From positions 274,622-338,621 of the forward strand of contig JBMORA010000001.1 of the NCBI GenBank assembly GCA_049320885.1: DNA of 64,000 nt, in the 5' to 3' direction. The position numbers and the translations under genes are program-made. Numbering within the stretch: the stretch's first letter is position 1; every line of letters begins with the position of its first letter. Under the pieces are notes generated by a model. It was not told where the DNA came from and did no database searches. It saw only the letters and a list, made by a program, of their open reading frames with translations. Shown one piece after another: positions 10,914 to 47,969 of this stretch. Source of the DNA: Thermodesulfobacteriota bacterium (GTDB lineage Bacteria; Desulfobacterota; Desulfobacteria; Desulfobacterales; SURF-7).

Positions 10914-10988
<75 letters not shown>

Positions 10989-11002
10989 TTTTTTTTGGTG
11001 CG

Positions 11003-11077
11003 GGCGGCATAGCCAAGTGGTAAGGCATCGGTCTGCAAAACCGACACTCTCCGGTTCAAATCCGGATGCCGCCTCCA
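11003..11077 (+). tRNA. tRNA-Cys (GCA), canonical 7/5 fold
   Basis: GGCGGCA/TGCCGCC acceptor stem, U73, anticodon arm TCGGT-CTGCAAA-ACCGA, encoded CCA. Confidence 0.98.
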
Positions 11078-29873: not shown

Positions 29874-30583
29874 GATTGCGCCTCTGAAATGATCCCCGTC
29901 ACCCGGATCAACAGTTCGCTTTTTTCCTTGCTGTCGGTTTTCAGATGGATCACCCCCCAGTACCGCCCCACGGTCTTCAGCCTGTTGGCGATCGTCAGCA
30001 CATACCGGTCCTCCTCGCTACGTAGCGTAAAGGCAATCTTCTCTTTGAGCCCTTCATCCGCATGGGATTCAATGATGCGGAAAGGATAATCCGGCTCAGG
30101 GGTAATCCGTACGGTGGTTTCAGCGGGCTTGCCGGCTTCCGCCCGCATCAAGGCCTGCCGGGGTTCGATACCGACGAAACGCCGCACCCTGCCGTTGATA
30201 TAGAGTTTGACTTCAGGTTCCTGCCGGTCGTTACTGATGACCGTGATGGTTTTTGAAAACCCGGAACCGCCGTATCCCTCTGTATTCCCCTTGATAACGA
30301 TTCGGCCCGTCCCCCCCGGCGGAATGACCCGGGTATAGTCCGCCGTGGTGCAGCCACAGCTTGTATGAACATTCTGAATCATCAAATCCGCCTTGCCGCT
30401 ATTTTCAATCCGGTATTCATGTTCGATAACGGCACCCTCCAGGACCGGCTTGAAATCGAAGCGCGGCTCCCGGACAGATATCCGCGGCCCTTCCAAGGCT
30501 TCCTCAAGCGCTCCGGACCAGTCCGGCAACGACAGAATCATCACCGCCCCAAAACATGCCGCCACCCAAATCCATCGTTTCAT
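29870..30583 (-). CDS. DUF1573-domain exported protein (SCGC motif)
   Basis: Signal peptide; NSGKADLMI..VHTSCGCT...IPPGGTG..SND Ig-like DUF1573 pattern. Confidence 0.85.
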   Translation of the reverse strand: MKRWIWVAACFGAVMILSLPDWSGALEEALEGPRISVREPRFDFKPVLEGAVIEHEYRIENSGKADLMIQNVHTSCGCTTADYTRVIPPGGTGRIVIKGNTEGYGGSGFSKTITVISNDRQEPEVKLYINGRVRRFVGIEPRQALMRAEAGKPAETTVRITPEPDYPFRIIESHADEGLKEKIAFTLRSEEDRYVLTIANRLKTVGRYWGVIHLKTDSKEKSELLIRVTGIISEAQS

Positions 30584-30607: not shown

Positions 30608-31048
30608 TTATATGGCCGCGGCAGAGCGGCCATGATACAATCCGATGGGACTGGGTCCCAGTTTCCGGATCCTGTCGGTCATTTCGATGGCGATTTCCGC
30701 GAACCGCGGTCCCATGGCCGACGACAGGTTGAACATGGCCACCCGTTCCGGCTCCATCCCGATTTGGCCGAGGATCTGTTTGACATACTCCACCCGCTTT
30801 CTGACTTTCAGATTGCCGGAAATGAAATGACATTCCCCTTCCAGACAACCGGCCACAACCACACCGTCGGCCCCGTCCTCCAGCGCTTTCATGAGATGCA
30901 AAACATCCACCCGGCCCGTACAGGGAACCTGAACGATCTTGATGTTTCCGGGATAGCATATGCGCATGGACCCGGCCAAATCCGCCGCCGCGTAGGCGCA
31001 ATATTTACAGCAATAGGCCAAAATCCTGGGTTCGAATGCTTCGGTCAT
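30608..31048 (-). CDS. mvhD: MvhD-type [2Fe-2S] subunit (copy 2)
   Basis: YCCKYCAYAAAD, VPCTGRV and GCLEGECH motifs. Confidence 0.93.
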   Translation of the reverse strand: MTEAFEPRILAYCCKYCAYAAADLAGSMRICYPGNIKIVQVPCTGRVDVLHLMKALEDGADGVVVAGCLEGECHFISGNLKVRKRVEYVKQILGQIGMEPERVAMFNLSSAMGPRFAEIAIEMTDRIRKLGPSPIGLYHGRSAAAI

Positions 31049-35584: not shown

Positions 35585-36022
35585 CTAACAGGCGGCCGCC
35601 GCTTCCTCCACCTTTCTCCTCTGGGTTGCCGGACCAAGAGTCTTCACCGCCGCGATCACCTGGTTGGCGACTTCGGCGAATTTGACCCCTTCGGCGGAAG
35701 AAATCCAGGAGAAATGCAGGCGTCCGGGCTCCACGCCGGTATGTTCCAACAAATTTTTCAGCAGGGCGAATTTACGGCGGGCATAGTAATTGCCAGTGAG
35801 ATAATGACAATCACCGGGGTGACACCCGGAAACCCAGACCCCGTCGGCGCCCTTGCGCAGGGCCGCAAGGATCAGTTTCGGACTGATCCGTCCGGAACAG
35901 GGCACCCGGATCACCCGCATGTTGGGCGGGTACTGAAACCGGCTCACCCCGGCCAGATCAGCGGCGCCGTAACTGCACCAGTTGCATAAAAACGTAATGA
36001 TCTTCGGTTCGAAATCGTTCAT
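35585..36022 (-). CDS. mvhD: MvhD-type [2Fe-2S] subunit (copy 1)
   Basis: FLCNWCSYGAAD, VPCSGRI and GCHPGDCHY motifs. Confidence 0.93.
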   Translation of the reverse strand: MNDFEPKIITFLCNWCSYGAADLAGVSRFQYPPNMRVIRVPCSGRISPKLILAALRKGADGVWVSGCHPGDCHYLTGNYYARRKFALLKNLLEHTGVEPGRLHFSWISSAEGVKFAEVANQVIAAVKTLGPATQRRKVEEAAAAC

Positions 36023-36050: not shown

Positions 36051-39000
36051 TCACGCGCATTCGATCATCGCCATAATCTGAGATTCCTCGAAACCTTTTA
36101 ACCGCAATGCTCCGGAGCGGCAGGAAGCCACGCAGGCCCCGCAACCCTTGCAGAGCACCGGATTGATTTCCGCCCTGCCCGCAAAGGGGCCGTCCGTCCT
36201 CAGAGAGGGCGCGTTGTAGGGACAGACGGCCACACAAACCCCGCAGCCGCTGCAATCCATTGGCGCCGAATACGCCACGGTTCCGCTGGTGCGGATGGTT
36301 TTCTGGGCCAGCAACCGGGTGGCGCCGGAGGCGGCGGCCTGGGCCTGGGCGATGGATTCGTCAATGGGCTTGGGATAATGGGCCAGTCCGCACAGGAACA
36401 CGCCGTCGGTGGCGAAATTGGAGGGGGCCAGTTTGACGTGGGCTTCGGCGAAAAAACCGTCGGCGTTCATGGGTACCTTGAAGAAGCGGGCCAGTTGTTC
36501 GTCCCTGTACGGCAAAACCGCCGCGGCCAGGGTCAGCAGATCGGCCTCGATCCGCAGCGGTTTTTTCAGGATATGATCCAGGACTTCGATTTCCAGACCG
36601 TTTTCCGCAACCCGCACCCCGGGTTTGTTCTCAAGGCTGAAACGGATGAAAACAACGCCTATTTCCCGGGCCGTCTGATACAATTTCTCGCGCTCGCCGT
36701 AGGTGCGGATATCCCGGTACAACACGAAAACGTTCATCTCCGGATTCATTTCCTTCAGATGGATCGCCGCGGCCACGCTGTGGGTGCAACAGATCCGCGA
36801 GCAGTATGGTCTTTGCGGCTCCCGGGAACCCACGCATTGAATAAAGACCGCCGTCTTCACCTCCCGGAGGGCTGGATCGCGTCGGCGCAGCCTTTCATCC
36901 AATTCCAGGGCGGTGAGCACCCGCGGGTCGTCGCCATAGCCGTATTCCGCGGGAAGGCTTTCCGTGGCGCCGGTGGCGATGACGGCCACTCCGTGGCGAA
37001 TGGTTTCCGTCCTGCCCGCCTGGTCCACGGTGGTGTCGAAATTGCCCACGAATCCGTCCACCCGGGTCAATCGGGCTTTCAGCAGGACGCGGATGCCGGG
37101 ATGGTTGGTGACGGCGATGCGGATCGCATCCAGACCGTCCTGAACCGATTCCCCCCAGGCGGTCTGGTACAACCGGTTGGCCTGCCCCCCCAGTTGACCT
37201 TCCCGTTCGATCAAGTGAACCGGATACCCCTGATCCGCCAAGGCCAACGCGGCGCTCATGCCGGAGAGTCCACCGCCGATCACCAGCGCATTTGGGTCGA
37301 TTTCCAGCTGGGCCTCCTCCAACGCCTGGTATTGGGCGACCTTGGCCGCAGCCATGCGCACCAGGTCCTTGGCTTTTTCCGTGGCGGCCAGAGGATATTC
37401 CTTGTGCACCCAGGAGCCATGGTTGCGGATGTTGACCATTTCAAACAAGTATTTGTTCAGTCCGGCGTTCAGCAGGGTTTCCTGGAATAAGGGATCGTGT
37501 GTTCTGGGCGTACAGGCGGCCACCACGATACGGTTCAGGTTCTTTTCCTCGATCAGACGGCTGATGGCGTCCTGGGTGTCCTGGGAACAGGAATACATGT
37601 TGTCGCTGACGTATTCCACAAAGGGCAATCCGGCTGCGTAATCGCGCACCGCGGGCACGTCGATGACGCCGCCGATGTTGATGCCGCAATGACAGACAAA
37701 CACCCCGATGCGGGGCCGTTCACCGTAAATGGTACGCTCGGGCCGCGGGGTGCTGGCGCGGGTCAGGGCATAGCGGCTGCCGGAAAGCGAAATACCAGCC
37801 CGCATGGCGGCCGCTCCGGCCTCCACGACGGTCTGGGGGATGTCCTTTGGGCCCTGGAAAGCGCCGCACACATAAATCCCCGGCCGGGAAGTCGACACCG
37901 GATCGAAAGAAGTAGTCCGGCAAAATCCGGAATCCGTGAGGGATACCCCCAGCTTGCCCGCCAGGCCGCGGACATCTTCCTGAATTTCCATACCAACGGA
38001 CAGGACCACGATATCGAAAACCTCCCGGGTCCACTTGCCGGTTTGCTCATCCATGTAGTCCAACACCTGACCTTTTCCCTCGCCGGTTTCGGGAAAGACC
38101 GAATGGACCTTGCAGCGCACAAAGCGGATGCCGTATTTCTCCCGGGCCTCGTTGTAGCAACTTTCAAAACCCTTCCCGTGGGTACGCATGTCCATATAGA
38201 AAATGGCGCATTCCAGATCCGGTTCATGCTCCTTGGCGATGATGGCCTGTTTAATGGCGTACATGCAGCAGACCGAGGAGCAATGGCTGTTGTCGCAGGT
38301 ATTCAAATCGCGGGAACCCACGCATTGCAGCCAGGCGATACGTTTGGGCTCCGCATGGTCGGACAGGCGCACCACGTGGCCCTGGTTGGGCCCCGAAGCC
38401 GACAGCAGGCGTTCGAATTCGATGGAGGTGACCACATCCGGATTGTTGTCATAGGAATAGATCAGTTTCCCCGCGGGATCATAGGCCTTGAATCCGGGAG
38501 CCAGAATGATGGCCCCTACATTCAGGATGATATTCCGATCCTTGTCGTCATAGTTGATGGCTCCCGCCGGGCAGGCCTTTTCACAGTTGCCGCATTTCCC
38601 CTTAGTCATGCGGATGCAATACCGCTCATCGATCGCATATTTTAATGGAACAGCCTGGGGATACTGGACATAAACGGCCTTGCGTTTGATCAGGCCCCGG
38701 TTGTACTCGTCGACGACTTTTTTGGGGCATTTTTCGGCGCAGGCGCCGCAGGCGATGCATTTTTCCATGTCCACGTAGCGGGCCTTGCGGAAGACATCCA
38801 CCTGAAAATTTCCCTGCTCGCCGCTGACATCCTTGATTTCCGCCAGGGTGATCAGTTCGATGTTCATATGCCGGCCCACCTCCACCAGCTTGGGGGACAT
38901 GATGCACATGGAACAGTCATTGGTGGGGAAGGTTTTGTCCAACTGGGACATGACGCCGCCGATGGAAGCGTTCTTCTCGATCATGTAGACATAATAACCG

Positions 39001-39083
39001 GAATTGGCCAGATCCAGGGCTGCCTGGATACCGCCGATGCCGCCGCCGGCGATCAGGACTGCTCCCGTGGTTTGCTTTGACAT
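36051..39083 (-). CDS. hdrA: Heterodisulfide reductase subunit A family protein (about 1010 aa)
   Basis: LDKTFPTNDCSMC, QCVGSR twice, CSSVCCMY, VFVCHCG, ferredoxin motifs. Confidence 0.93.
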   Translation of the reverse strand: MSKQTTGAVLIAGGGIGGIQAALDLANSGYYVYMIEKNASIGGVMSQLDKTFPTNDCSMCIMSPKLVEVGRHMNIELITLAEIKDVSGEQGNFQVDVFRKARYVDMEKCIACGACAEKCPKKVVDEYNRGLIKRKAVYVQYPQAVPLKYAIDERYCIRMTKGKCGNCEKACPAGAINYDDKDRNIILNVGAIILAPGFKAYDPAGKLIYSYDNNPDVVTSIEFERLLSASGPNQGHVVRLSDHAEPKRIAWLQCVGSRDLNTCDNSHCSSVCCMYAIKQAIIAKEHEPDLECAIFYMDMRTHGKGFESCYNEAREKYGIRFVRCKVHSVFPETGEGKGQVLDYMDEQTGKWTREVFDIVVLSVGMEIQEDVRGLAGKLGVSLTDSGFCRTTSFDPVSTSRPGIYVCGAFQGPKDIPQTVVEAGAAAMRAGISLSGSRYALTRASTPRPERTIYGERPRIGVFVCHCGINIGGVIDVPAVRDYAAGLPFVEYVSDNMYSCSQDTQDAISRLIEEKNLNRIVVAACTPRTHDPLFQETLLNAGLNKYLFEMVNIRNHGSWVHKEYPLAATEKAKDLVRMAAAKVAQYQALEEAQLEIDPNALVIGGGLSGMSAALALADQGYPVHLIEREGQLGGQANRLYQTAWGESVQDGLDAIRIAVTNHPGIRVLLKARLTRVDGFVGNFDTTVDQAGRTETIRHGVAVIATGATESLPAEYGYGDDPRVLTALELDERLRRRDPALREVKTAVFIQCVGSREPQRPYCSRICCTHSVAAAIHLKEMNPEMNVFVLYRDIRTYGEREKLYQTAREIGVVFIRFSLENKPGVRVAENGLEIEVLDHILKKPLRIEADLLTLAAAVLPYRDEQLARFFKVPMNADGFFAEAHVKLAPSNFATDGVFLCGLAHYPKPIDESIAQAQAAASGATRLLAQKTIRTSGTVAYSAPMDCSGCGVCVAVCPYNAPSLRTDGPFAGRAEINPVLCKGCGACVASCRSGALRLKGFEESQIMAMIECA

Positions 39084-39159
39084 CGTTATCTTCTCCTTGC
39101 CTTCCTTGCTTGATTTTTCGAAAAACAGTTTCCGCGATCATTTGATGGACCGCCAAAGA

Positions 39160-40467
39160 CTAGTATCCCGGCAGATTCACTTCCGCCAAATCCGGCCCAA
39201 GATAGGCGCGTTCGTTTTCACCCAGGATGCCCAGGGAAAGCGCGATGATCGTCCACAAATGCACCGTCCGATACGCTCCCTTGCCGAAATGATGCCCCAA
39301 CTCATCAATCTGGGCATGACAGTTATGGCACGGCGTAATGACATAGGGTACGCCGGTGCGGCTGATCTGCTCATGTTTCAGTCTCCCGTAATGCAGCCGG
39401 GCATCCTTGAAACCGGACTGAAGATAGCCGCCGCCACCGCCGCAACAGTAATTGTTGGATTTGTTCGGCCACATCTCGATGACATTCTCCGCCCCCACGC
39501 AGGCTGCCGTGACAAAGCGCAGTTCATCGGCCAGGGTGTCGCCGAAGCCCTTGCGCACCTGGTTGCAGGGATCCTGAACGGTGAATTTCACCTGCAGTTC
39601 CTTGTTCCAGGAAGCATCGACCTTGAGCTTTCCCTCCCGGATCCATTTGGCGTAGTAGGAAACCATGGGGGCGATCTCCAGGTCGGTTTCGATCTTGTGC
39701 CGCTTCTGCCCCATCCAGACCGAAAACGTGGAATGACCGCATTCGGTGTTCAGGTATACCTTGCACCCTAAATTCATGGCCTGTTTCAGGGTCTTTTCCG
39801 TGATGGTCTTCCAGCCCTCGTCATCGGCCAGGAACATGCAATAGTTCTCGCCGCCCCAGCCGGTGCAGCTGTAAGTCCAATCCGCGCCGGAAAGGTGCAG
39901 GATCTTCCAAAGGGGCGCCATTTCCTCGGGTTCGGTGACCGGTTCCCGAGAATTCTGACTCAAAAAGAAATGCGCTCCCTGCTTGTCGATGGGTGCTTCC
40001 AGGTTTTCCCAGCCCGGCTGGTTGGTCCGGACTTCCTCCAGCATATCCTCCACCACAAACCGGAAATCCTCCTCCGGGGTCCCCATGGCGCTGCAGCTGT
40101 CGTTCTTCAGGGCCATGTCGCAGGACCCCAGAATCCCCTTGGGCCGTTCTTCCCGGGGCCACAATTTGCGGCCCTCGAACACCATGGCGGCGATATCGAT
40201 GTTCATCGGACAGACATAACTGCAACGCTTGCACATGCTGCACAGCCAGACCCAGGGATGTTTGGTCAGTTCCCGGTCCATTCCCAACGCCACCATGCGG
40301 ACGAATTTGCGCGGGTCCATGTCTTCCAGACCGGAGGCTGGGCAGCCCGATGCGCAAGCGCCGCAGGTCAAACATAAATTCAGATTGGCGCCCTTGGGCA
40401 ATATGCTCAACAGCTTGTTTTTGAATTGCGGTTTCCAGTCTTTTTGAATCACGATCGGATCATTCAT
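39160..40467 (-). CDS. HdrD-like (HdrC-type 4Fe-4S plus CCG domain) Fe-S protein
   Basis: CLTCGACASGCP, CSMCKRCSYVCP, NTECGH, QDPCN, YCCGGGGG, PCHNC. Confidence 0.88.
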   Translation of the reverse strand: MNDPIVIQKDWKPQFKNKLLSILPKGANLNLCLTCGACASGCPASGLEDMDPRKFVRMVALGMDRELTKHPWVWLCSMCKRCSYVCPMNIDIAAMVFEGRKLWPREERPKGILGSCDMALKNDSCSAMGTPEEDFRFVVEDMLEEVRTNQPGWENLEAPIDKQGAHFFLSQNSREPVTEPEEMAPLWKILHLSGADWTYSCTGWGGENYCMFLADDEGWKTITEKTLKQAMNLGCKVYLNTECGHSTFSVWMGQKRHKIETDLEIAPMVSYYAKWIREGKLKVDASWNKELQVKFTVQDPCNQVRKGFGDTLADELRFVTAACVGAENVIEMWPNKSNNYCCGGGGGYLQSGFKDARLHYGRLKHEQISRTGVPYVITPCHNCHAQIDELGHHFGKGAYRTVHLWTIIALSLGILGENERAYLGPDLAEVNLPGY

Positions 40468-40664
40468 CCTGCTTTCCTTTCCCATATCGAAATAAATCCT
40501 CACCGGTATCCTGGAGCATCCATGAAGGACATGTTCCGGAGACCGATCTCTTGGCGTAAACGACGGGCGCGGCAGCGCTGAAAAAATGCCGAATGGTAAC
40601 AGCCAGTCTGAATCACCGAATGAAAAAAAGGAAACGCAGGAAAACGGAATCGATCTTCAGGCCG

Positions 40665-40736
40665 CTACTTCACCACCTGCCGAACCCGGGCAGGCACGCT
40701 GCAACACGCTCAAGTAAAGCCTGTAAACCGATGCAT
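40665..40736 (-). promoter_or_regulatory. Putative Sec-containing leader peptide MHRFTGFT(U)ACCSVPARVRQVVK with SECIS-like hairpin, upstream of the hdr operon
   Basis: GGGAG RBS (40746-40742), ATG at 40736, in-frame TGA at 40712-40710, hairpin CCTGCC-CGGGTTC-GGCAGG (40694-40676) 15 nt after the TGA, TAG at 40667-40665; homologous to the leader at 40969. Confidence 0.75.
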
Positions 40737-40830
40737 GGAAACTCCCGAAAGGACTTGCCGTACCCACTCCATGCGGCAATGCGCCGCACAGGCAATGGAA
40801 CGGATGGATTCACGCAATAAATTCCGGGTC

Positions 40831-40860
40831 GTCATAGCATGAAATCCGGCGGCGTATCAA
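40831..40860 (-). promoter_or_regulatory. Possible sigma70 promoter for the hdr leader/operon
   Basis: Minus strand TTGATA-N18-TATGAC with an extended TG; the -10 is imperfect. Confidence 0.35.
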
Positions 40861-40968
40861 ATCGATAGTTTCAATGCATATGTTTTTCCGGATTGGAATT
40901 ATCAATTTGACCATTTCCGGATATCCATAATAAGAAGCATGACCATCGAATCGAAGCAGGAGCTGTCC

Positions 40969-41044
40969 ATGCAGACATTTTTCGGCTTTACCTGAGGGTT
41001 GTTGGAAACTGCGCCGAGTTGCGGCGCTGGGGTACGGCTGAAAA
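40969..41044 (+). promoter_or_regulatory. Putative Sec-containing leader peptide MQTFFGFT(U)GLLET... with SECIS-like hairpin, upstream of selC*-selB*
   Basis: AGGAG RBS (40958-40962), ATG at 40969, in-frame TGA at 40993-40995, hairpin GCGCCG-AGTTG-CGGCGC (41011-41027) 15 nt after the TGA; the read-through frame stays open to 41286. Confidence 0.75.
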
Positions 41045-41108
41045 TCACCATCGAATCGATTGTTCCCGGTTTTTTCCGGCGCCGGCGCCCCATGCAAGAA
41101 CAGATGAC

Positions 41109-41200
41109 AGGGGCAATGGTGCTGGGCACCCCGCGGTCTTCAAAACCGTCGGCCTCGCCTGAAAATCGAGGAGGAGGTTCGATTCCCCTTGCCCCTTCCA
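41109..41200 (+). tRNA. selC*: selC*-type tRNA with UCA anticodon (tRNA-Sec-like 8/4 fold, probably Cys-accepting)
   Basis: 8-bp acceptor AGGGGCAA/TTGCCCCT, discriminator T41197 then CCA, D arm GGTGC/GCACC, anticodon arm GCGGT-CTTCAAA-ACCGT, long variable arm CCTCG/CGAGG, 4-bp T stem GG(A)GG/CCCC with a bulged A. Confidence 0.9.
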
Positions 41201-41225
41201 AACCAGGAAAACCGTTTCGAACGCT

Positions 41226-43151
41226 ATGGACAGATATTATACCATCGGTGTGGCCGGCCATGTGGACCACGGCAAGACTTCCCTGATTCGCTGCCTGACG
41301 GGTATCGATACGGACCGCCGGACGGATGAAAAACTCCGCGGCATCTCCATCGATGCGGGGATCGCGCCGCTGGATATGCCCGACGGACACCGTATCGCCC
41401 TGGTGGATGTGCCCGGGCATACGGATTACCTGAAAAACACCGTGCGCGGACTCCATGCCGTCGACAGCGCGGTTCTGGTGGTGGCCGCCGATGACGGCAT
41501 CATGCCCCAGACAGTGGAGCATCTGGAAATTTTACGCTTTTTCAAGGTCAGCAAGGGGTTCGTAGTATTGAGCAAGACCGATCTCGTGGATCCGGAAACC
41601 AGGGAAATAGCCATGCTGGAAATCGAGGATGCCGTGAAGGGGACTTTTCTAGAGGGCTGCCCCATCGTCCCCTTCTCTGCTGTCCAAGGCGCAGGCAGGG
41701 AGGAAGTCCTGCAGCAGATCATCCAAACCACCGATGACGAAAAACGAACCGTGACGAAAGATTTTTTCCGGATGTGGATCGATCAAGTGCGGATCCGCAA
41801 GGGATTCGGAACCGTAGTCAGCGGGACAATCCTGTCCGGCAGCCTTCGCAAGGACGACGCGGTTCAACTGTTGCCGGCCGGAACCGTCGTCCGGGCGCGG
41901 ACCATCGAATCCCACGGCCGCAGCATCGAACAGGCCTGTCCGGGACAGCGCGTGGGCGTTAATCTGCACAAAATACCGGCAACCGATGTCGTCAGGGGAA
42001 TGGCCCTGTCGCAACCGGACGCCATCATTCCAAGCTATCTGCTGAATGCGGATCTCCGACTTCTCGGCAACACCGGGAAAAATCTGAAAAGCCGACAACG
42101 GGTGAAACTGCACATCGGCGCTTCCGTCACCAGCGCCATGATCGTTCTCATGGATGCGAAGGAACTGACGCCGGGCGGACAATGCCTGGCCCAGTTGCGC
42201 CTGCTGAAACCGGCGGCCGCAAGGTCACGCGATCCTTTTGTAGTCACCCCGCTGAACCGCAATACCGTCATCGGCGGCGGAACCGTTCTGGAACCGACAC
42301 AGGAGAAATACCGTAGCGCCAAATCGGCCGGAATCGTTCCGATGCTGTCGGCTCTCCGGAGCGGCAATCTTGCCGGATATTTGGATTTGTTTTTCGGCCA
42401 TCAGCAAACCCACGCTTTCTCCGCCCGGGAACTCACGGAAAAGACCGGATGGCCTCTCCCGCAACTCGAAGCGGAAATCAACGCCCGGGTGCGGAAAGGG
42501 GACCTGATTTATATCAAGGGGCTGGGCGCCCTTGCAAAAACGGAGTTCCGCCGACTCAAGGACGAAGTCCTTTTCTCCGTCGAAAGGCTTTTCCAGAGCA
42601 ACGCCGCCAAAAAAATCATCCATGAAAAGGAGATCGCCCATGATTTGTCCGCTCTTCTGGAAGAAAAACTGCTGCAAGGCATCATCGAGGAATGGTGTCA
42701 TGATGAAAAACTGACAAAAACCGGGGGCGGATTCCTCAACCCGTATTACAATGAGGCTCCGGCCACGGTTCTTTCCCCTCAGATGGAACAAACGATCCGG
42801 CTGCTCCTGGAGCATGCCCGGTCCAGCGGAATGTCGCCTTTCAGCGCCGACAGTTTCTGGAAGGCTCACGAAAAAAAACTGAACAAGCCGAGAGTCCAGC
42901 AGGCCATGGAATACCTGGCCGAGCGGAAACAGTTGATCCGCCTGCGGGACAACCGTTTTCTCGATCCGGAATCCCTGGAAATCATCAAGGAACGGGTCAG
43001 AAGCGCCATCCAGGCCAAAGGCTTCATCACCTTATCAGACAGCAGGGAAATATTAGGATACGGCCGCTGGGGCGGGGCGCCGGTATTGGACCATCTGGAT
43101 AAAATCGGCTTCACCGTCCGGATCGGGGACAAACGCCTGATCCGGCAATGA
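41226..43151 (+). CDS. selB: SelB-family elongation factor, divergent paralog (SelB*)
   Basis: GHVDHGKT, DVPGH, VAADDGIMPQT, KGFGTVVSG motifs and C-terminal winged-helix region; 641 aa; starts 25 nt after the UCA tRNA. Confidence 0.92.
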   Translation: MDRYYTIGVAGHVDHGKTSLIRCLTGIDTDRRTDEKLRGISIDAGIAPLDMPDGHRIALVDVPGHTDYLKNTVRGLHAVDSAVLVVAADDGIMPQTVEHLEILRFFKVSKGFVVLSKTDLVDPETREIAMLEIEDAVKGTFLEGCPIVPFSAVQGAGREEVLQQIIQTTDDEKRTVTKDFFRMWIDQVRIRKGFGTVVSGTILSGSLRKDDAVQLLPAGTVVRARTIESHGRSIEQACPGQRVGVNLHKIPATDVVRGMALSQPDAIIPSYLLNADLRLLGNTGKNLKSRQRVKLHIGASVTSAMIVLMDAKELTPGGQCLAQLRLLKPAAARSRDPFVVTPLNRNTVIGGGTVLEPTQEKYRSAKSAGIVPMLSALRSGNLAGYLDLFFGHQQTHAFSARELTEKTGWPLPQLEAEINARVRKGDLIYIKGLGALAKTEFRRLKDEVLFSVERLFQSNAAKKIIHEKEIAHDLSALLEEKLLQGIIEEWCHDEKLTKTGGGFLNPYYNEAPATVLSPQMEQTIRLLLEHARSSGMSPFSADSFWKAHEKKLNKPRVQQAMEYLAERKQLIRLRDNRFLDPESLEIIKERVRSAIQAKGFITLSDSREILGYGRWGGAPVLDHLDKIGFTVRIGDKRLIRQ

Positions 43152-43202
43152 CGATAAACCGGCTCCGTTTTTCGATGGAGCCAATACGGAAAGGGAGACG
43201 AC

Positions 43203-44480
43203 ATGAGCGAAGAGTATACAAGCATGTGGCAATCGTTGGGACTCGACCTGGCTGCCCATGACGCCTTGCTGAATGTCCTGGGGCAGGCCTACCAGGACAT
43301 TTACCTGGCCCAGAAGAACCGGCCCGATGGAATGAAGTACTTCGACTTCGTGATGAGCGAAGTCCATGGCCTGCGCATCAAGGAACTGCTGGAGGAGAAA
43401 GCGGCTGGCAGAAAAATCGTCGGCAGTTATTGCGTCTTCGTTCCGGAGGAAATCGTGCTGGCGGCCAACGCCACCCTGGTGGGCCTGTGCGCCGGAGCCG
43501 ATTTCGCCCTGGAGGAGGCGGAAAAACTGCTGCCGCGCAATACCTGTTCCCTGATCAAATCCACCTTCGGCTTCAAACTGGGCAAGGTCTGCCCCTATCT
43601 GGAATCCGCCGACATGGTGGTGGGGGAGAACACCTGCGACGGCAAAAAGAAAGCCTACGAAATTTTGGACACCCTCATTTCCAACTTGTATGTCATGGAT
43701 CTGCCCCAGGTGAAATCCGTCGCCGGACGCGAACTCCTGAAAACCGAATACTACCGATTCAAGGCAGCCCTGGAAAAACTGACGGGCGTTACCGTGGATA
43801 AGCAGGCCCTGGAAAAAGGTATCAAAACCGTCAACGAAAAACGCAAGGCTGTTCACCGCCTGAACCGGCTGCGCGCCGCCGACCCGGCCCCCATATCCGG
43901 CCTGGACGCCCTGTTGGTCAATCAGGTGTTTTTCTATGACAACCCGGCCCGCTTCACTTCCTCCGTGAACATGATCTGTGACGAACTGGAGGGCCGCATC
44001 CGGGAGAAGTCCGGCATTTCCTCCGGAAAGCGTCCCAGAATCCTGGTATCCGGCTGTCCCATGGCCGTGCCCAACTGGAAACTTCCCTGGATTGTGGAAA
44101 CCTCCGGCGCGGTCATCGTGGGTGAGGAATCCTGCGTGGGCGAACGCGGCAGCAGAAACCTGGTGAACGGGGACGGCACTACCCTGGATGATCTGATGGA
44201 AGCCGTCATCGACCGGTACTTCGCCATCGACTGCGCCGTGTTCACGCCCAATCAAAGCCGGCTCGATCATATCGTTGAAATGGCCGCCGCCTACAAGGCG
44301 GACGGCGTCATTCACTATGGCCTGCAATTTTGCCAACCCTATTTGATGGAGTCCCTGCCCGTTGAAAAAGCCTTGAAGGATAAAGGGATTCCGGTCCTGC
44401 GGGTGGAAACCGACTACGGCCCGGAAGACGCCGGTCAGCTCAAGACCCGGGTGGAGGCCTTCCTGGAGATGCTCAAATAA
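43203..44480 (+). CDS. 2-hydroxyacyl-CoA dehydratase D-component family protein, double-cubane cluster protein-like reductase
   Basis: GSYCVFVPEE, GLCAG, LPRNTC, ENTCDGKKK, SGCP, EESCVG, IDCAVF, QFCQPY, ETDY, TRVEAF. Confidence 0.85.
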   Translation: MSEEYTSMWQSLGLDLAAHDALLNVLGQAYQDIYLAQKNRPDGMKYFDFVMSEVHGLRIKELLEEKAAGRKIVGSYCVFVPEEIVLAANATLVGLCAGADFALEEAEKLLPRNTCSLIKSTFGFKLGKVCPYLESADMVVGENTCDGKKKAYEILDTLISNLYVMDLPQVKSVAGRELLKTEYYRFKAALEKLTGVTVDKQALEKGIKTVNEKRKAVHRLNRLRAADPAPISGLDALLVNQVFFYDNPARFTSSVNMICDELEGRIREKSGISSGKRPRILVSGCPMAVPNWKLPWIVETSGAVIVGEESCVGERGSRNLVNGDGTTLDDLMEAVIDRYFAIDCAVFTPNQSRLDHIVEMAAAYKADGVIHYGLQFCQPYLMESLPVEKALKDKGIPVLRVETDYGPEDAGQLKTRVEAFLEMLK

Positions 44481-44524: not shown

Positions 44525-45664
44525 CTACCCACGCAGTTCTTTCACCGCCCGGACGACCACCTCCGCTGCCCGGTCGATCTCGCCTACGGTGGTCATCCTC
44601 CCGGTGGTGAACCGCAGCGTCCCCTTGGCCCACGCCTCGGGGAGCTTCATGGCCGTCAGCACATGGGAGATTTCCACATGGTCCGAATGGCAGGCGGCCC
44701 CGGCGGATGCGGCGACCTCAAGACCGATCCGCTCCAGAATGCGGCTGGCCTCCAGCTGGAAGAAAGAAATGCTGGCGGTGTTGGGCAACCGCAGTTCCGG
44801 ATGGCCGTTGAACCGGATATCCGTGAGTTCCGTTCCTAGAATGCCCTCCAAACGATTCCGCATGGCTTGCATGTGGCCCGCGCCGCTTTCCATAGTGGCG
44901 GCGGCGAGTTCACAGGCCTTGCCGAGGCCCACGATGCCCATCACGTTTTCGGTCCCTGCCCGGCTTCCTCTTTCCTGTCCCGCTCCGTGACAGAAAACCT
45001 TCGGCTCCACCCCGTTACGGATATACAGGCCGCCGACTCCTTTGGGCGCATACAGTTTATGACCCGCGAAGGATAGCAGATCCACCCCCAACGCGTCTGC
45101 TTCCACCCGGATCTTTCCAAGGGATTGAGCCGCATCCGTATGCATCAGAACCCCGGCTTTGCGGGCCAGGGCGGCAATTTCCGCAACCGGCTGGATGGTT
45201 CCCACTTCGTTGTTGGCATGCATGATGGAAATCAGGATGGTGTCCGGAGTAATTGCCGCGGCCACATCGGATGGGGCTACCATTCCGGTTTCATCCACCG
45301 GCAGATAAGTGACCGAGAATCCAAGGCCTTCCATATACCTACAGGTTTCAAGCACCGCCGGATGCTCCACCAGACTGGTTATCAAATGCTTGCCGCGGGC
45401 GAAACGGTTGCCGGCGATGCTCTTGATGGCCTGATTAATGGATTCGGTGCCGCCGCTGGTGAAAATAATTTCTTCCGCGGTGCAATCGATCAAACCGGCC
45501 ACCTGCCGCCGGGCCGCCTCCACAGCCTGTTTGGGACGGATTCCATACCAATGGGAACTGGACGGGTTGCCGAATTCCGTTTCCAGATAAGGCCTCATGG
45601 CGGCGATGACTTCCGGCGCATGCGGCGTGGTCCCGTTGTAATCCAGATAAATGGGTTTGGTCAT
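44525..45664 (-). CDS. Group I cysteine desulfurase / selenocysteine lyase-like PLP enzyme
   Basis: YLDYNGTTP, FTSGGTES, HTDAAQ, AGHKLYAPKG and SAGAACHS motifs. Confidence 0.9.
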   Translation of the reverse strand: MTKPIYLDYNGTTPHAPEVIAAMRPYLETEFGNPSSSHWYGIRPKQAVEAARRQVAGLIDCTAEEIIFTSGGTESINQAIKSIAGNRFARGKHLITSLVEHPAVLETCRYMEGLGFSVTYLPVDETGMVAPSDVAAAITPDTILISIMHANNEVGTIQPVAEIAALARKAGVLMHTDAAQSLGKIRVEADALGVDLLSFAGHKLYAPKGVGGLYIRNGVEPKVFCHGAGQERGSRAGTENVMGIVGLGKACELAAATMESGAGHMQAMRNRLEGILGTELTDIRFNGHPELRLPNTASISFFQLEASRILERIGLEVAASAGAACHSDHVEISHVLTAMKLPEAWAKGTLRFTTGRMTTVGEIDRAAEVVVRAVKELRG

Positions 45665-45956
45665 GGGTTACCCTTTTCCAGCATGAAAACGCGGTCTACA
45701 AACTTGTAAATGTCCTCCACTTCTGCTTGCAGCGCCTCATCCGTCTTTCGTCAGGGAGATATCATAAAACATCGGCATTGTCTAATATCTCCAGAATGGT
45801 GGATGCCTATAGAATTCATGAATGAAGGTGCGATTTATAATTCATATTATCTATTTGTATATCCTTTCATTCCATGGTTTTATCTATTTTTCAGCCAAAT
45901 CGTCAAGCCGGCCGGGAGTTAGGAACGGATATCAACAATCAAGAAAAGGATTCGTC

Positions 45957-47969
45957 ATGAACAATTGCAGGGCAGAAGTTTTCAGGTTGTTTTTTCTAGT
46001 AGTAATCGCTGTATCGCTGATCACGGGATGCGGCAGTTCTTCGGACTCGACGGACGGTGGTAGTCCGGCGCCGGGGAACGACACGGGCAAGCCCACGGCA
46101 GCCCAGACCGGCGACCTGTCATTGTTTCCCAATGCCGATCTGCTGGCCTCGGCCACGGATCTGGTCACCGACGAAGGCGTGATGAAAAACATGGCTGAGT
46201 GGGTCATTGTCGATACTAGGTCCGCCGCCGACTATGCCGCGGGGCATATCCCGGGCGCCATCAACCTTCAATGGGATTCCTTTGCCGTCCGGGACGGCTC
46301 CACGCCCAAAGGCAGCCTGCTGCCCGTGGACAGCCTCGCGGCGGTCCTGGGAGCCGCGGGACTGACAGAGGACACCGCCGTGATTTTTTATGACGACACC
46401 CTGGCTTCCCGGGGTTCGGCCGGACGTTTATTCTGGATGCTGGAGTATCTCGGCAACACCCGTTGCAGAATCCTCAACGGCGGCTGGGACAAATGGGCCG
46501 CCGATGACCTCCCGACGGAAACCACCGTCAACACCCTTCCCGCCGCCGTATTCGTACCGGACGTCGATGCCTCCGTTCGGGCCGATAAAACCGGAATCGC
46601 CGCCAGACTCAATCATGACGATTTTGTCCTGGTGGACACCCGCACCGATGAGGAATTCACGGGCTGGCGCCTGTATGACGAAGCCCGCGAAGGGCATGTG
46701 AAAGGAGCGGTCCACCTGCCCTTCGCCTGGTGCTTCAACGCGGACAAATCGGTCCTGAGCCATGCGGCTCTGAAAACCCTGCTGGAATCGCGGGGTATCA
46801 CGGGCGACAAGGAAATCGCGGCCTATAGCACGGACGGTGTCCGCAGCGGGTTCCTGTATTTCCTGGGACGTCTGATGGGGTATGACGTCATCGCCAATTA
46901 CGACGCTTCCATCCGGGAATGGGCCGAAGGCGATGACACAACATACCCCATGGAAAAAATGGCAGGATATTCCGAGCTGGTCTATCCGGCGTGGGTCAAG
47001 GCCCTGATCGATTATCACGCCCCGGGCAGCGCCACCGAAGCACCGCCGGGATATCTCCATGATCGTGGTCATCGCCATATCATCTTCGAAACCCAGTGGG
47101 GCAGCTTCGAGGACATGGCCAACGGGTGGGCGGACGACGCTTATCTGAAAGGGCATATTCCCGGCGCCGTGCATTCCAATTCGGACACTTACGAAAACGG
47201 ATTCCCCCGCTGGTTTTTGCTGCCGGAAGACCAGTTGAAGCAGGCGCTGGGCAGCATGGGCGTCACCGCCGACGCCACGGTGGTGGTGTACAGCAACAAC
47301 CCCATTTTTGCCGCCCGCCTGTGGTGGATCTTGAAATACGCGGGGGTGCAGGACGTCCGATTGCTCAACGGCGGCTATGACGCCTGGGTTGCAGCCGGCT
47401 ACGAATCCGAAACCACCGTGAACGACTCCGCGGCGGTCACCTATGACGGTTCGGTTGTACCAGGTCTGATCGCCGCAACGGATTATGTTGCGGCCAATTA
47501 TAATACCGGCGGCGCCGTCCTGGCCGATGTGCGCACCTGGGCGGAATACATCGGTGAGACCAGCGGCTACAGCTATGTCGTCAACAAGGGCCGCATTCCG
47601 GGCGCTGTCTGGGCCTATAATGCGGACAATCCGGATCGGGAATACCTGGATGATGACGGCACCCTTCGCAGCTTCACCGAGGTAAGAGGCATGTGGGCAG
47701 GTCTGGGGATTACCGCCGCGGAGGGAAGTTCAACCTTTGACCGGGAGGTCATTTTCTACTGTGGGAGCGGTTACCGCTCCAGCCTGAGCTTTCTCCATGC
47801 CCATCTGATGGGATATCAAAATGTGCGGAACTATTCGGACGGCTGGGAGGGTTGGAGCACCACCTATACCGAATCCCCCGATTATGTCGCCGATCCGGCG
47901 GTTCCCGGCAGCACGGACGGCTGGCTCCAAGACCCCTCCGGAAGACCGGTTGCCAGCGGCGCTCCCTGA
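45957..47969 (+). CDS. Four-domain rhodanese/sulfurtransferase lipoprotein
   Basis: Lipobox LITGC; GHIPGA/GHVKGA/GRIPGA repeats, LNGG motifs, active-site loops YSTDGVRS and YCGSGYRS, YSDGW. Confidence 0.88.
   Translation: MNNCRAEVFRLFFLVVIAVSLITGCGSSSDSTDGGSPAPGNDTGKPTAAQTGDLSLFPNADLLASATDLVTDEGVMKNMAEWVIVDTRSAADYAAGHIPGAINLQWDSFAVRDGSTPKGSLLPVDSLAAVLGAAGLTEDTAVIFYDDTLASRGSAGRLFWMLEYLGNTRCRILNGGWDKWAADDLPTETTVNTLPAAVFVPDVDASVRADKTGIAARLNHDDFVLVDTRTDEEFTGWRLYDEAREGHVKGAVHLPFAWCFNADKSVLSHAALKTLLESRGITGDKEIAAYSTDGVRSGFLYFLGRLMGYDVIANYDASIREWAEGDDTTYPMEKMAGYSELVYPAWVKALIDYHAPGSATEAPPGYLHDRGHRHIIFETQWGSFEDMANGWADDAYLKGHIPGAVHSNSDTYENGFPRWFLLPEDQLKQALGSMGVTADATVVVYSNNPIFAARLWWILKYAGVQDVRLLNGGYDAWVAAGYESETTVNDSAAVTYDGSVVPGLIAATDYVAANYNTGGAVLADVRTWAEYIGETSGYSYVVNKGRIPGAVWAYNADNPDREYLDDDGTLRSFTEVRGMWAGLGITAAEGSSTFDREVIFYCGSGYRSSLSFLHAHLMGYQNVRNYSDGWEGWSTTYTESPDYVADPAVPGSTDGWLQDPSGRPVASGAP

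Follow-up and report, generated by a model that had tools for sequence, protein, structure and literature searches.

Which signal could govern, from a single intergenic region, both an all-cysteine Hdr/Mvh operon and a gene pair thought to place cysteine (Cys) at UGA codons? This question is raised by a stretch of 64,000 nucleotides (nt), called the window below, of contig JBMORA010000001.1 (positions 274,622 to 338,621) of a Thermodesulfobacteriota bacterium of the order Desulfobacterales (assembly GCA_049320885.1). Its divergent region carries two short upstream open reading frames (uORFs), each closed by UGA and followed by a hairpin of the selenocysteine insertion sequence (SECIS) type. 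One stands before the Hdr/Mvh operon on the minus strand, the other before a selC*-type tRNA gene and the SelB paralogue gene selB* on the plus strand. An original prediction, made from the letters of this DNA, had proposed that both are leaders sensing selenocysteine (Sec) and inducing the two operons when selenium is scarce. Here we show that the two elements are members of a conserved family, and we propose from comparative sequence evidence that the leader is probably an attenuator which senses the capacity for Sec insertion and is on when Sec is short.

Conserved features of the leader family

The two elements are homologous and lie in opposite orientation (Table 1), with sequence, spacing and continuation as originally described; in both copies the UGA stands at codon 9 and the hairpin follows 15 nt later. 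On the 3' side of both hairpins CGGC(C)TGAA(G/A)ATC is followed by a pyrimidine-rich tract, and in single-sequence folds both GC hairpins cap a longer stem, which is formed by uORF codons and CGGC(C)UGAA(G/A)AUC. The degenerate pattern TTYNNNGGNTTYACNTGA (F-x-G-F-T-UGA) has two sites in the 5.6-Mb genome, both of them here, and the reversed control has none. The covariance model R1, described below, likewise matched only these two sites in a search of the whole genome, the minus copy with 101.9 bits (E 2.7e-19) and the plus copy with 75.6 bits (E 3.9e-13). A generic genome scan for any arrangement of Shine-Dalgarno sequence, uORF, UGA and hairpin returned 49 candidates, whose ranking was not useful. 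A search upstream of the selD-yedF and yedE-DUF3343 genes of this genome showed no further leader. In an Rfam search of positions 38000-44000 (cmscan, E<=10) the tRNA-Sec family was found, the leader matched no curated family, and a chance match to CRISPR-DR29 under the plus hairpin had 18.6 bits, well below the gathering score of 39.

The family was built from an initial search with TTYNNNGGNTTYACNTGA across 61 relatives, in which 85 occurrences were obtained against 12 for the reversed pattern used as control. On reading the contexts, 20 sites in 13 genomes had the full architecture; these were aligned (alignment A2), and a three-helix structure set by hand from single-sequence folds was used to make R1. 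In the same order R1 found 58 sites in 40 of the 151 sampled genomes. A sample of the phylum gave sites in 11 of 151 genomes, nine of them outside the order and spread over five families; eight of the nine sites outside the order show the same uORF and UGA. Alignment A3, fitted to R1, holds 60 sites from 42 genomes. In a sister genome (G002) the whole divergent unit, consisting of the Hdr-Cys operon, the two leaders and selC*-selB*, is present twice (contigs C57/L038 and C83/L039), and in both units the hairpin variants of the Hdr side and the selC* side match those of the window. The covariance-model scan of relatives that had been suggested with the prediction was carried out, and it returned the conserved UGA, the co-varying hairpin and the kinds of downstream genes that had been expected.

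All 60 members have TGA at the aligned codon, and in all 60 the hairpin starts 13-17 nt past it, at exactly 15 nt in 37. The apical hairpin is the best conserved helix, with compensatory changes in five of its six pairs and 90.6% of the alignment cells paired. In most members its loop reads CGGGUUC or CGGGUUU; selC*-linked copies within this genus have AGUUG or AGGUG instead. Bacterial SECIS elements have a conserved G (and U) near the 5' side of the apical loop, and the leader hairpins carry G/U at this place. The geometry appears to resemble that of hairpins at this genome's own Sec codons, as the genuine Sec codons of its Hdr/Mvh genes are followed after 14-16 nt, as judged by eye, by hairpins whose G-rich loops have a similar size.

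The uORF is conserved as a reading frame. The start codon is nearly invariant, a purine-rich Shine-Dalgarno sequence at a distance like that in the window is usual, nearly all members have eight sense codons, and the peptide is M-x-x-F-F-G-F-T, or M-I-H-D-F-G-F-T in one subtype. Over codons 4-8 the entropy by codon position is 0.25/0.38/0.92, so that changes are mostly synonymous and at third positions, and GC-rich relatives encode the same peptide with other codons (UUC UUC GGC UUC ACC). This codon periodicity together with the keeping of the peptide in other codons is a signature of translation. The idea that the peptide is a mere by-product of RNA pairing was rejected, since codons 7-8 lie outside helix 1 and the main stem and yet vary almost only at third positions. 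Past the UGA the encoded peptide is not conserved. Reading on in frame, the first stop is a TAG in 28 members, a TAA in 18 and a TGA in the other 14; its distance from the UGA ranges from 9 to 291 nt, with 27 stops falling inside the hairpin and 21 past the 3' arm of the long stem.

A long stem between codons 2-6 of the uORF (segment A) and the 3' arm (segment B) was the second conserved structure. Compensatory changes were seen in 11 of the 13 pairs of helix 1. Over the whole structure 83.3% of the cells were paired, against 36-52% when the partners were slid by 1-3 columns, and none of 500 column shuffles reached the observed pairing. Since A3 was fitted to the model, the count was repeated on an alignment made with MAFFT only, in which 81.4% were paired against 30-55% after sliding. 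The middle helix of the stem is weak (66%). Any ribosome on the uORF must open the A:B stem.

Genes behind the leaders

The Hdr operon behind the minus leader is of the Cys type, as predicted: it is the all-Cys version of paralogues that have in-frame TGA elsewhere in the genome. Four paralogues with in-frame TGA were found for the leader-linked HdrA-like and HdrL-like proteins (Cys60 and Cys100), three for the HdrD-like protein (Cys255) and four for MvhD (Cys67/Cys16). Counted genome-wide, the four Sec-position motifs occur with Cys ten times and with TGA 11 times, and the leader operon holds five Cys and no TGA. The same holds across the family, where all 61 Sec-position motifs in Hdr/Mvh genes behind 68 leaders have Cys and none has Sec (26 in HdrD, with one gene counted from two leaders, 24 in HdrA and 11 in MvhD). 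The five leader-linked FdhA genes, from four genomes, contain no internal stop, and their closest same-genome paralogues (up to 70% identical) contain one TGA each.

To class the downstream genes, the first recognisable genes behind 60 leaders were determined from Pfam and tRNA calls; four leaders lie at contig ends and 56 could be assessed. Operons with HdrD-like, HdrA and MvhD genes followed 25 of these 56 leaders, and a UCA tRNA, mostly with selB* and an HGD-D gene, followed 10. Eight leaders preceded genes for YedE-like Sulf_transp proteins, porin, the selenium carrier Se_S_carrier (DUF3343), SelD, or TusA/YedF-like or rhodanese proteins. The remainder preceded FdhA-type molybdopterin enzymes (5/56), DUF1573 genes (4/56), HGD-D genes (3/56) and an operon of a solute-binding protein (1/56). 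Leaders in other orders precede MvhD-HdrA, HGD-D, HdrD-like and FdhA genes. In the family the distance from leader to next start codon is 60-450 nt. YedE, YedF, DUF3343, SelD, Sec-lyase-like genes and a dehydratase/activase pair have been tied to selenium metabolism in a comparative study (PMC5322559). Taken together, the backup isoenzymes, the genes for uptake, carriers and SelD, and a system for Cys at UGA point to expression at Sec shortage.

Which SelB would read the leader UGA was considered next to this gene content. With at least 400 bits and at least 36% identity as the threshold for a SelB*-type call, SelB-type genes of the canonical kind were found in 146 of the 151 genomes, SelB*-type genes in 15 and leaders in 40. 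Of these 40 genomes with a leader, about 28 show canonical SelB only. Searches of relatives with SelB* gave mostly distant SelB or GTPase matches. Because SelB* is far rarer than the leader, most leaders must be read by canonical SelB, and we infer that canonical SelB reads the leader UGA.

Several further observations concern these gene groups. DUF1573 proteins, with an Ig-like fold, recur in leader operons, often beside Cys-type FdhA (L032, L035, L050, L087, L092, L110, L111). HGD-D genes, often with a BcrAD/BadFG-type activase, recur after selB* or a leader (L037, L082, L114, L049, L106, L121), and the HGD-D/activase pair is among the selenium-gene neighbours in Table 1 of PMC5322559. Two degenerate remnants of selC*-like tRNAs were seen, one at L042:3110-3200 (genome G039), whose anticodon loop by eye is no longer UCA, and one at L037:13850-13940 (G035), where ARAGORN calls no tRNA; each has a leader on one side and, on the other, a porin/YedE-like operon or an hdrD-like gene. 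It seems that the leader-tRNA unit was duplicated as a whole, with later decay of the tRNA, or that the remnant was kept as a processing site. At L083:3001-6639 (G119) a leader and an intact UCA tRNA are followed by porin, YedE-like and DUF3343 genes. Only the canonical type is present among the SelB matches listed for this genome, so it would have a selC*-type tRNA without selB*.

A putative selenocysteine switch and its alternatives

In the proposed mechanism a ribosome would start at the strong Shine-Dalgarno sequence and AUG and meet the UGA after eight sense codons, with the SECIS-type hairpin 15 nt further on. When SelB-GTP-Sec-tRNASec is available, the UGA would be recoded and the ribosome would enter the structure between A and B, which would leave B free for pairing with segment C further downstream. 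The resulting OFF state would be a terminator in some members, such as the minus copy of the window with its UUUUU directly after B:C; in others it may consist in Rho-dependent termination on a C-rich, G-poor tract. When Sec-tRNASec is short, release factor 2 (RF2) would release the ribosome at the UGA; A:B would close, C would stay unpaired and transcription would continue (ON). The output would here be the all-Cys Hdr/Mvh operon and selC*-selB*, thought to put Cys at UGA, and elsewhere Cys-type formate dehydrogenases, YedE-type transporters, selenium carriers and SelD. It has been reported that failed Sec insertion leads to RF2 termination at UGA and that recoding needs enough selenium (PMC4513850).

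The comparisons show the anatomy to be conserved, and they show the covariation, the constraint on codons and the regulon. The sensor function as a whole is probable; the specific exchange of A:B for B:C is put forward tentatively and may well turn out otherwise. We infer the polarity, the role of B:C and control at transcription. At least for the 10 leaders with a tRNA gene behind them, control must be transcriptional or act via RNA processing. Between B and the next 130 nt the duplex is stronger than in shuffles (median z -1.26, and below -2 in 18 of 60 members), and this duplex is about as stable as A:B (-18.0 versus -18.35 kcal/mol). In one subgroup segment C is more conserved than the loop or tract before it. 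The first 80 nt downstream are C-rich and G-poor across the family (C 25.8%, G 15.0%), with C exceeding G in 57 of 60 members compared with 40 of 60 upstream; such a composition would suit Rho-dependent termination.

A number of results weigh against this reading or limit it. Taken alone, the two copies of the window have modest folding z-scores (-1.2 and -1.7), and RNAalifold on the raw MAFFT alignment returned seven pairs and did not recover the long stem. For B:C, 11 of the 60 members, including most of the M-I-H-D-F-G-F-T subtype, have no signal (z>0). A U-tract after segment C is present in 14 of 60 against 9.3 expected, and B is nearly invariant in the only subgroup with an alignable C, so that B:C covariation is uninformative there. 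The few U-tracts and the members lacking a B:C signal mean that the switch model is not general as stated. Canonical intrinsic terminators within 200 nt downstream were found in six of 60 members, in three of which the terminator is the SECIS-like hairpin itself; as a general output they were rejected. The strong conservation of F-F-G-F-T is left unexplained by the model; the peptide may tune RF2 against SelB at the leader UGA. In distribution, R1 did not find the leader in 111 of the 151 genomes of the order, though nearly all have SelB. In content, the SelD behind the leader is of the Sec type in two loci, so the regulon is not purely selenium-free. Finally, four selC*-selB* loci gave no R1 match even with filters off, and two of them show no uORF by eye. 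The other two, again as judged by eye, carry different eight-codon uORFs, MTRSFRFN (L216:170-400, G117) and MTIFSRRH (L218:180-400, G036), and in each 15 nt separate the UGA from a hairpin CCGUCA-loop-UGACGG whose loop contains GG; since uORFs with unrelated peptides have the same layout, the geometry is more general than the peptide.

Four other explanations were weighed against an attenuator that is on at Sec shortage. The polarity could be the opposite, with UGA recoding in selenium-replete cells letting transcription or translation continue, so that the genes are made when Sec is plentiful. Treponema primitia needs selenium for transcription past a Sec codon (PMC3892789), SelD behind some leaders is Sec-type, and a long stall at the UGA would cover A, so that the terminator-like B:C of the minus copy would form under starvation. 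Against this, the leader-linked Hdr/Mvh and FdhA proteins are always the Cys isoforms, whereas the Sec isoforms of the same genomes stand without a leader; it is under shortage that uptake genes, carrier genes and a UGA-to-Cys system would be of use; and RF2 terminates translation where Sec insertion fails (PMC4513850). We therefore regard opposite polarity as unlikely. Another possibility is an operator that needs no translation, in which the hairpin binds SelB-Sec-tRNASec, the uORF being incidental. The Escherichia coli selAB 5' untranslated region (5'UTR) has a SECIS-like element that is bound by SelB-GTP-Sec-tRNASec and represses (bioRxiv 10.64898/2026.03.03.709296), and the apical hairpin is the helix best kept in the leader family. 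Such an operator would not need the conserved Shine-Dalgarno sequence, AUG, eight-codon length, third-position variation and in-frame UGA, however, and an element with 60-450 nt between it and the next start, found before tRNA genes as well, cannot work by occluding a ribosome-binding site; this explanation is quite improbable.

Two further explanations take the UGA itself in another sense. SelB* and the Cys-tRNA(UCA) could decode it, the leader then being a sensor of the Cys-at-UGA system and a feedback device for selC*/selB* only. That 10 leaders directly precede a UCA tRNA, that the selC*-linked leaders of this genus have a hairpin variant of their own (3/3 pairs) and that SelB* keeps the winged-helix mRNA-binding domain would fit, but the roughly 28 leader-bearing genomes that show no SelB*-like gene, and the ordinary hairpin of selC*-linked leaders outside this genus, make it very unlikely as a general account; where SelB* exists, its feedback may act on top of Sec sensing. 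Lastly, the uORFs could be genes for functional small selenopeptides of the form M-x-x-F-F-G-F-T-Sec plus a tail, for which the N-terminal conservation at the amino-acid level and the UGA with its SECIS-like hairpin could be cited. Here the sequence after the UGA, the frame relative to the hairpin, the length and the type of stop are all unconserved, and the element always heads an operon of selenium-linked genes, so that we give this idea hardly any credence. The attenuator which senses Sec-insertion capacity remains our preferred explanation.

Setting of the locus and known systems

The features of the window are collected in Table 1. The divergent region contains a single sigma-70-like promoter match, against 0.8 expected, which is a weak match to consensus only; a transcript from it would begin ahead of the minus uORF.

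Table 1. Leader elements and flanking genes in the window (positions count from its first letter)
Feature	Position	Strand	Remarks
sigma-70-like promoter match	40898..40927	-	weak consensus match
Shine-Dalgarno GGGAG, minus leader	40742..40746	-	sequence; 5 nt before ATG
uORF MHRFTGFT with UGA at codon 9, minus leader	40710..40736	-	ATG CAT CGG TTT ACA GGC TTT ACT TGA
Segment A, minus leader	within 40710..40736	-	uORF codons 2-6; 5' arm of long stem
SECIS-like apical hairpin, minus leader	40676..40694	-	CCUGCC-CGGGUUC-GGCAGG; 15 nt past UGA
Segment B, minus leader	40649..40675	-	3' arm pairing back to uORF (A:B stem); folds, covariation
Pyrimidine tract, minus leader	40621..40648	-	C-rich/G-poor; past the stem
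Segment C, minus leader	40586..40620	-	putative alternative partner of B; duplex -24.4 kcal/mol
UUUUU	40585-40581	-	immediately 3' of minus segment C; terminator-like
Shine-Dalgarno AGGAG, plus leader	40958..40962	+	6 nt before ATG
uORF MQTFFGFT with UGA at codon 9, plus leader	40969..40995	+	ATG CAG ACA TTT TTC GGC TTT ACC TGA
SECIS-like apical hairpin, plus leader	41011..41027	+	GCGCCG-AGUUG-CGGCGC; 15 nt past UGA
Segment B, plus leader	41028..41049	+	3' arm
Segment C, plus leader	41067..41096	+	putative alternative partner of B; -25.1 kcal/mol; without U-tract after it
HdrD-like Fe-S/CCG protein	39160..40503	-	Cys-type (Cys255); likely start ATG 40467 or 40485
HdrA-like flavo-Fe-S protein	36051..39083	-	Cys-type (Cys60)
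MvhD-like subunit	35585..36022	-	Cys-type (Cys67)
HdrL-like fusion, 1525 aa	31060..35637	-	Cys-type (Cys100); HdrL name after PMC2702500
Second MvhD-like gene	30650-31036	-	Cys-type; tblastn, coordinates converted
DUF1573 gene	29879-30487	-	end of the same-strand Hdr gene row
selC*-type tRNA	41109..41200	+	ARAGORN; UCA anticodon, A1:U72, U73, 8/4 acceptor/T arms, CCA encoded
selB* (SelB paralogue)	41226..43151	+	all SelB domains, including C-terminal winged-helix SelB-wing_3 (mRNA-binding)
HGD-D family (2-hydroxyacyl-CoA-dehydratase-like)	43203..44480	+	recurs directly after selB*

The Cys-UGA decoding genes proposed beside the plus leader are present: the tRNACys(UCA) with A1:U72 and U73 begins 33 nt past the end of the plus-copy covariance match and is followed by the SelB paralogue, which is 32% identical to the canonical SelB of this genome (contig C27). 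The other UCA tRNA of the genome (contig C12) has G1:C72, G73 and an 8/5 fold. A selC* tRNACys/selB* system has been described for Desulfobacterales and Syntrophobacterales (PMC5389517; review PMC7609411), and the features of the flanking tRNA and selB* match that of PMC5389517. A dedicated CysRS* without anticodon-binding domain was also reported for genomes with A1:U72/UCA tRNAs (PMC5389517); such a cysS* was not found in this genome, where PF01406 identifies two full CysRS genes. The second of these is a PALP-CysRS fusion with DALR_2 and CysS_C (L132:550-2829; G000 contig C1:237844-240123), whose PALP domain is of the pyridoxal-phosphate-dependent, cysteine-synthase-like kind, and the gene is located some 35 kb ahead of the window. 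Neighbours of the selB* operon are a class-V aminotransferase gene of the NifS/Sec-lyase-like type (44525-45664, minus strand) and a gene for a protein with four rhodanese domains (45822-47969, plus strand), which may take part in sulfur/selenium trafficking. Ordinary tRNA-Gly(GCC) and tRNA-Cys(GCA) genes stand in tandem at 10914-11077 (plus strand).

Among the closest known systems are amino-acid attenuators such as trpL, hisL and pheL (PMC3892789), in which the speed of decoding a short translated leader at codons for one amino acid chooses the RNA pairing, as the leader would do here, and which likewise stand before supply genes (here SelD, YedE-like and carrier genes). The present leader differs in that the sensing codon would be a stop, decided between release and read-through and not between stall and passage, in that a SECIS-type hairpin would be needed and a canonical terminator occurs in only six of 60 members, and in that isoenzyme replacement and a tRNA/elongation-factor pair would also be controlled. 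The E. coli selAB 5'UTR ties selenium genes to SelB-Sec-tRNASec by a SECIS-type leader hairpin (bioRxiv 10.64898/2026.03.03.709296), as the present leader would, but the E. coli element has no UGA and no uORF, lies 3 nt from the Shine-Dalgarno sequence and blocks initiation, whereas the present leader has a translated uORF with an invariant UGA, stands well away from the next start and in some cases comes before a tRNA gene. In fdhFSec of T. primitia the decoding of a Sec UGA with its SECIS alters downstream transcription by coupling (PMC3892789); there the UGA is inside the selenoprotein gene, which shortage switches off, while here a dedicated eight-codon leader stands before other genes, whose content suggests that they are on at shortage. 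LysR_Se and HrsM also control Cys isoenzymes and selenium genes by selenium status, but they are DNA-binding proteins thought to sense selenophosphate (PMC5322559), in contrast to a cis-acting RNA leader read by the ribosome. As to the selC*/selB* papers, neither PMC5389517, whose main text contains none of the terms 'SECIS', 'leader' and 'Hdr', nor the available part of PMC7609411 mentions a leader, SECIS or Hdr link.

The attenuation of tnaC depends on a stop codon and on Rho, and free tryptophan is sensed there via the nascent peptide. Like tnaC, the present leader is short and ends in UGA, the fate of the ribosome at that codon would decide, and downstream of it there is a tract rich in C and poor in G. 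What points to SelB-dependent recoding here, on the other hand, is the SECIS-like hairpin together with the selenium genes; a role of Rho is suggested by base composition. In none of these closest known systems does a uORF of its own, ending in a stop codon that is recoded, stand before a whole set of backup genes. No published description of such a leader was found in full-text searches of the available papers.

The bacterial candidates for selenium sensing in the papers cited here are the LysR_Se/HrsM proteins (PMC5322559) and the E. coli selAB operator (bioRxiv 10.64898/2026.03.03.709296); the present leader would act in cis and let the ribosome sense the 21st amino acid. The family delineates, by sequence alone, a putative selenium-starvation regulon, which provides a physiological setting for DUF1573, the HGD-D/activase pair and DUF3343. 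It would also give a first regulatory context for selC*/SelB*, whose natural use is unsettled in the available text of the selC* papers (PMC5389517, PMC7609411), and it would explain how selenoprotein-rich organisms may switch between Sec and Cys sets of paralogues, which the genome paper of Desulfobacterium autotrophicum only speculated on (PMC2702500). In its fullest form, which we offer as a conceivable scheme and with some doubt, bacteria of this phylum would gauge their selenium status by means of the ribosome: the competition of SelB recoding and RF2 release at one UGA of a dedicated eight-codon leader would refold the RNA, and shortage would turn on selenium uptake, SelD, all-Cys isoenzymes and a selC*/SelB* pair that re-reads as cysteine the Sec codons in those selenoprotein mRNAs that remain. 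If this is true, the selC*/SelB* arm would be a conditional, regulated change of codon meaning, and decoding of the leader UGA by SelB* would close a feedback loop.

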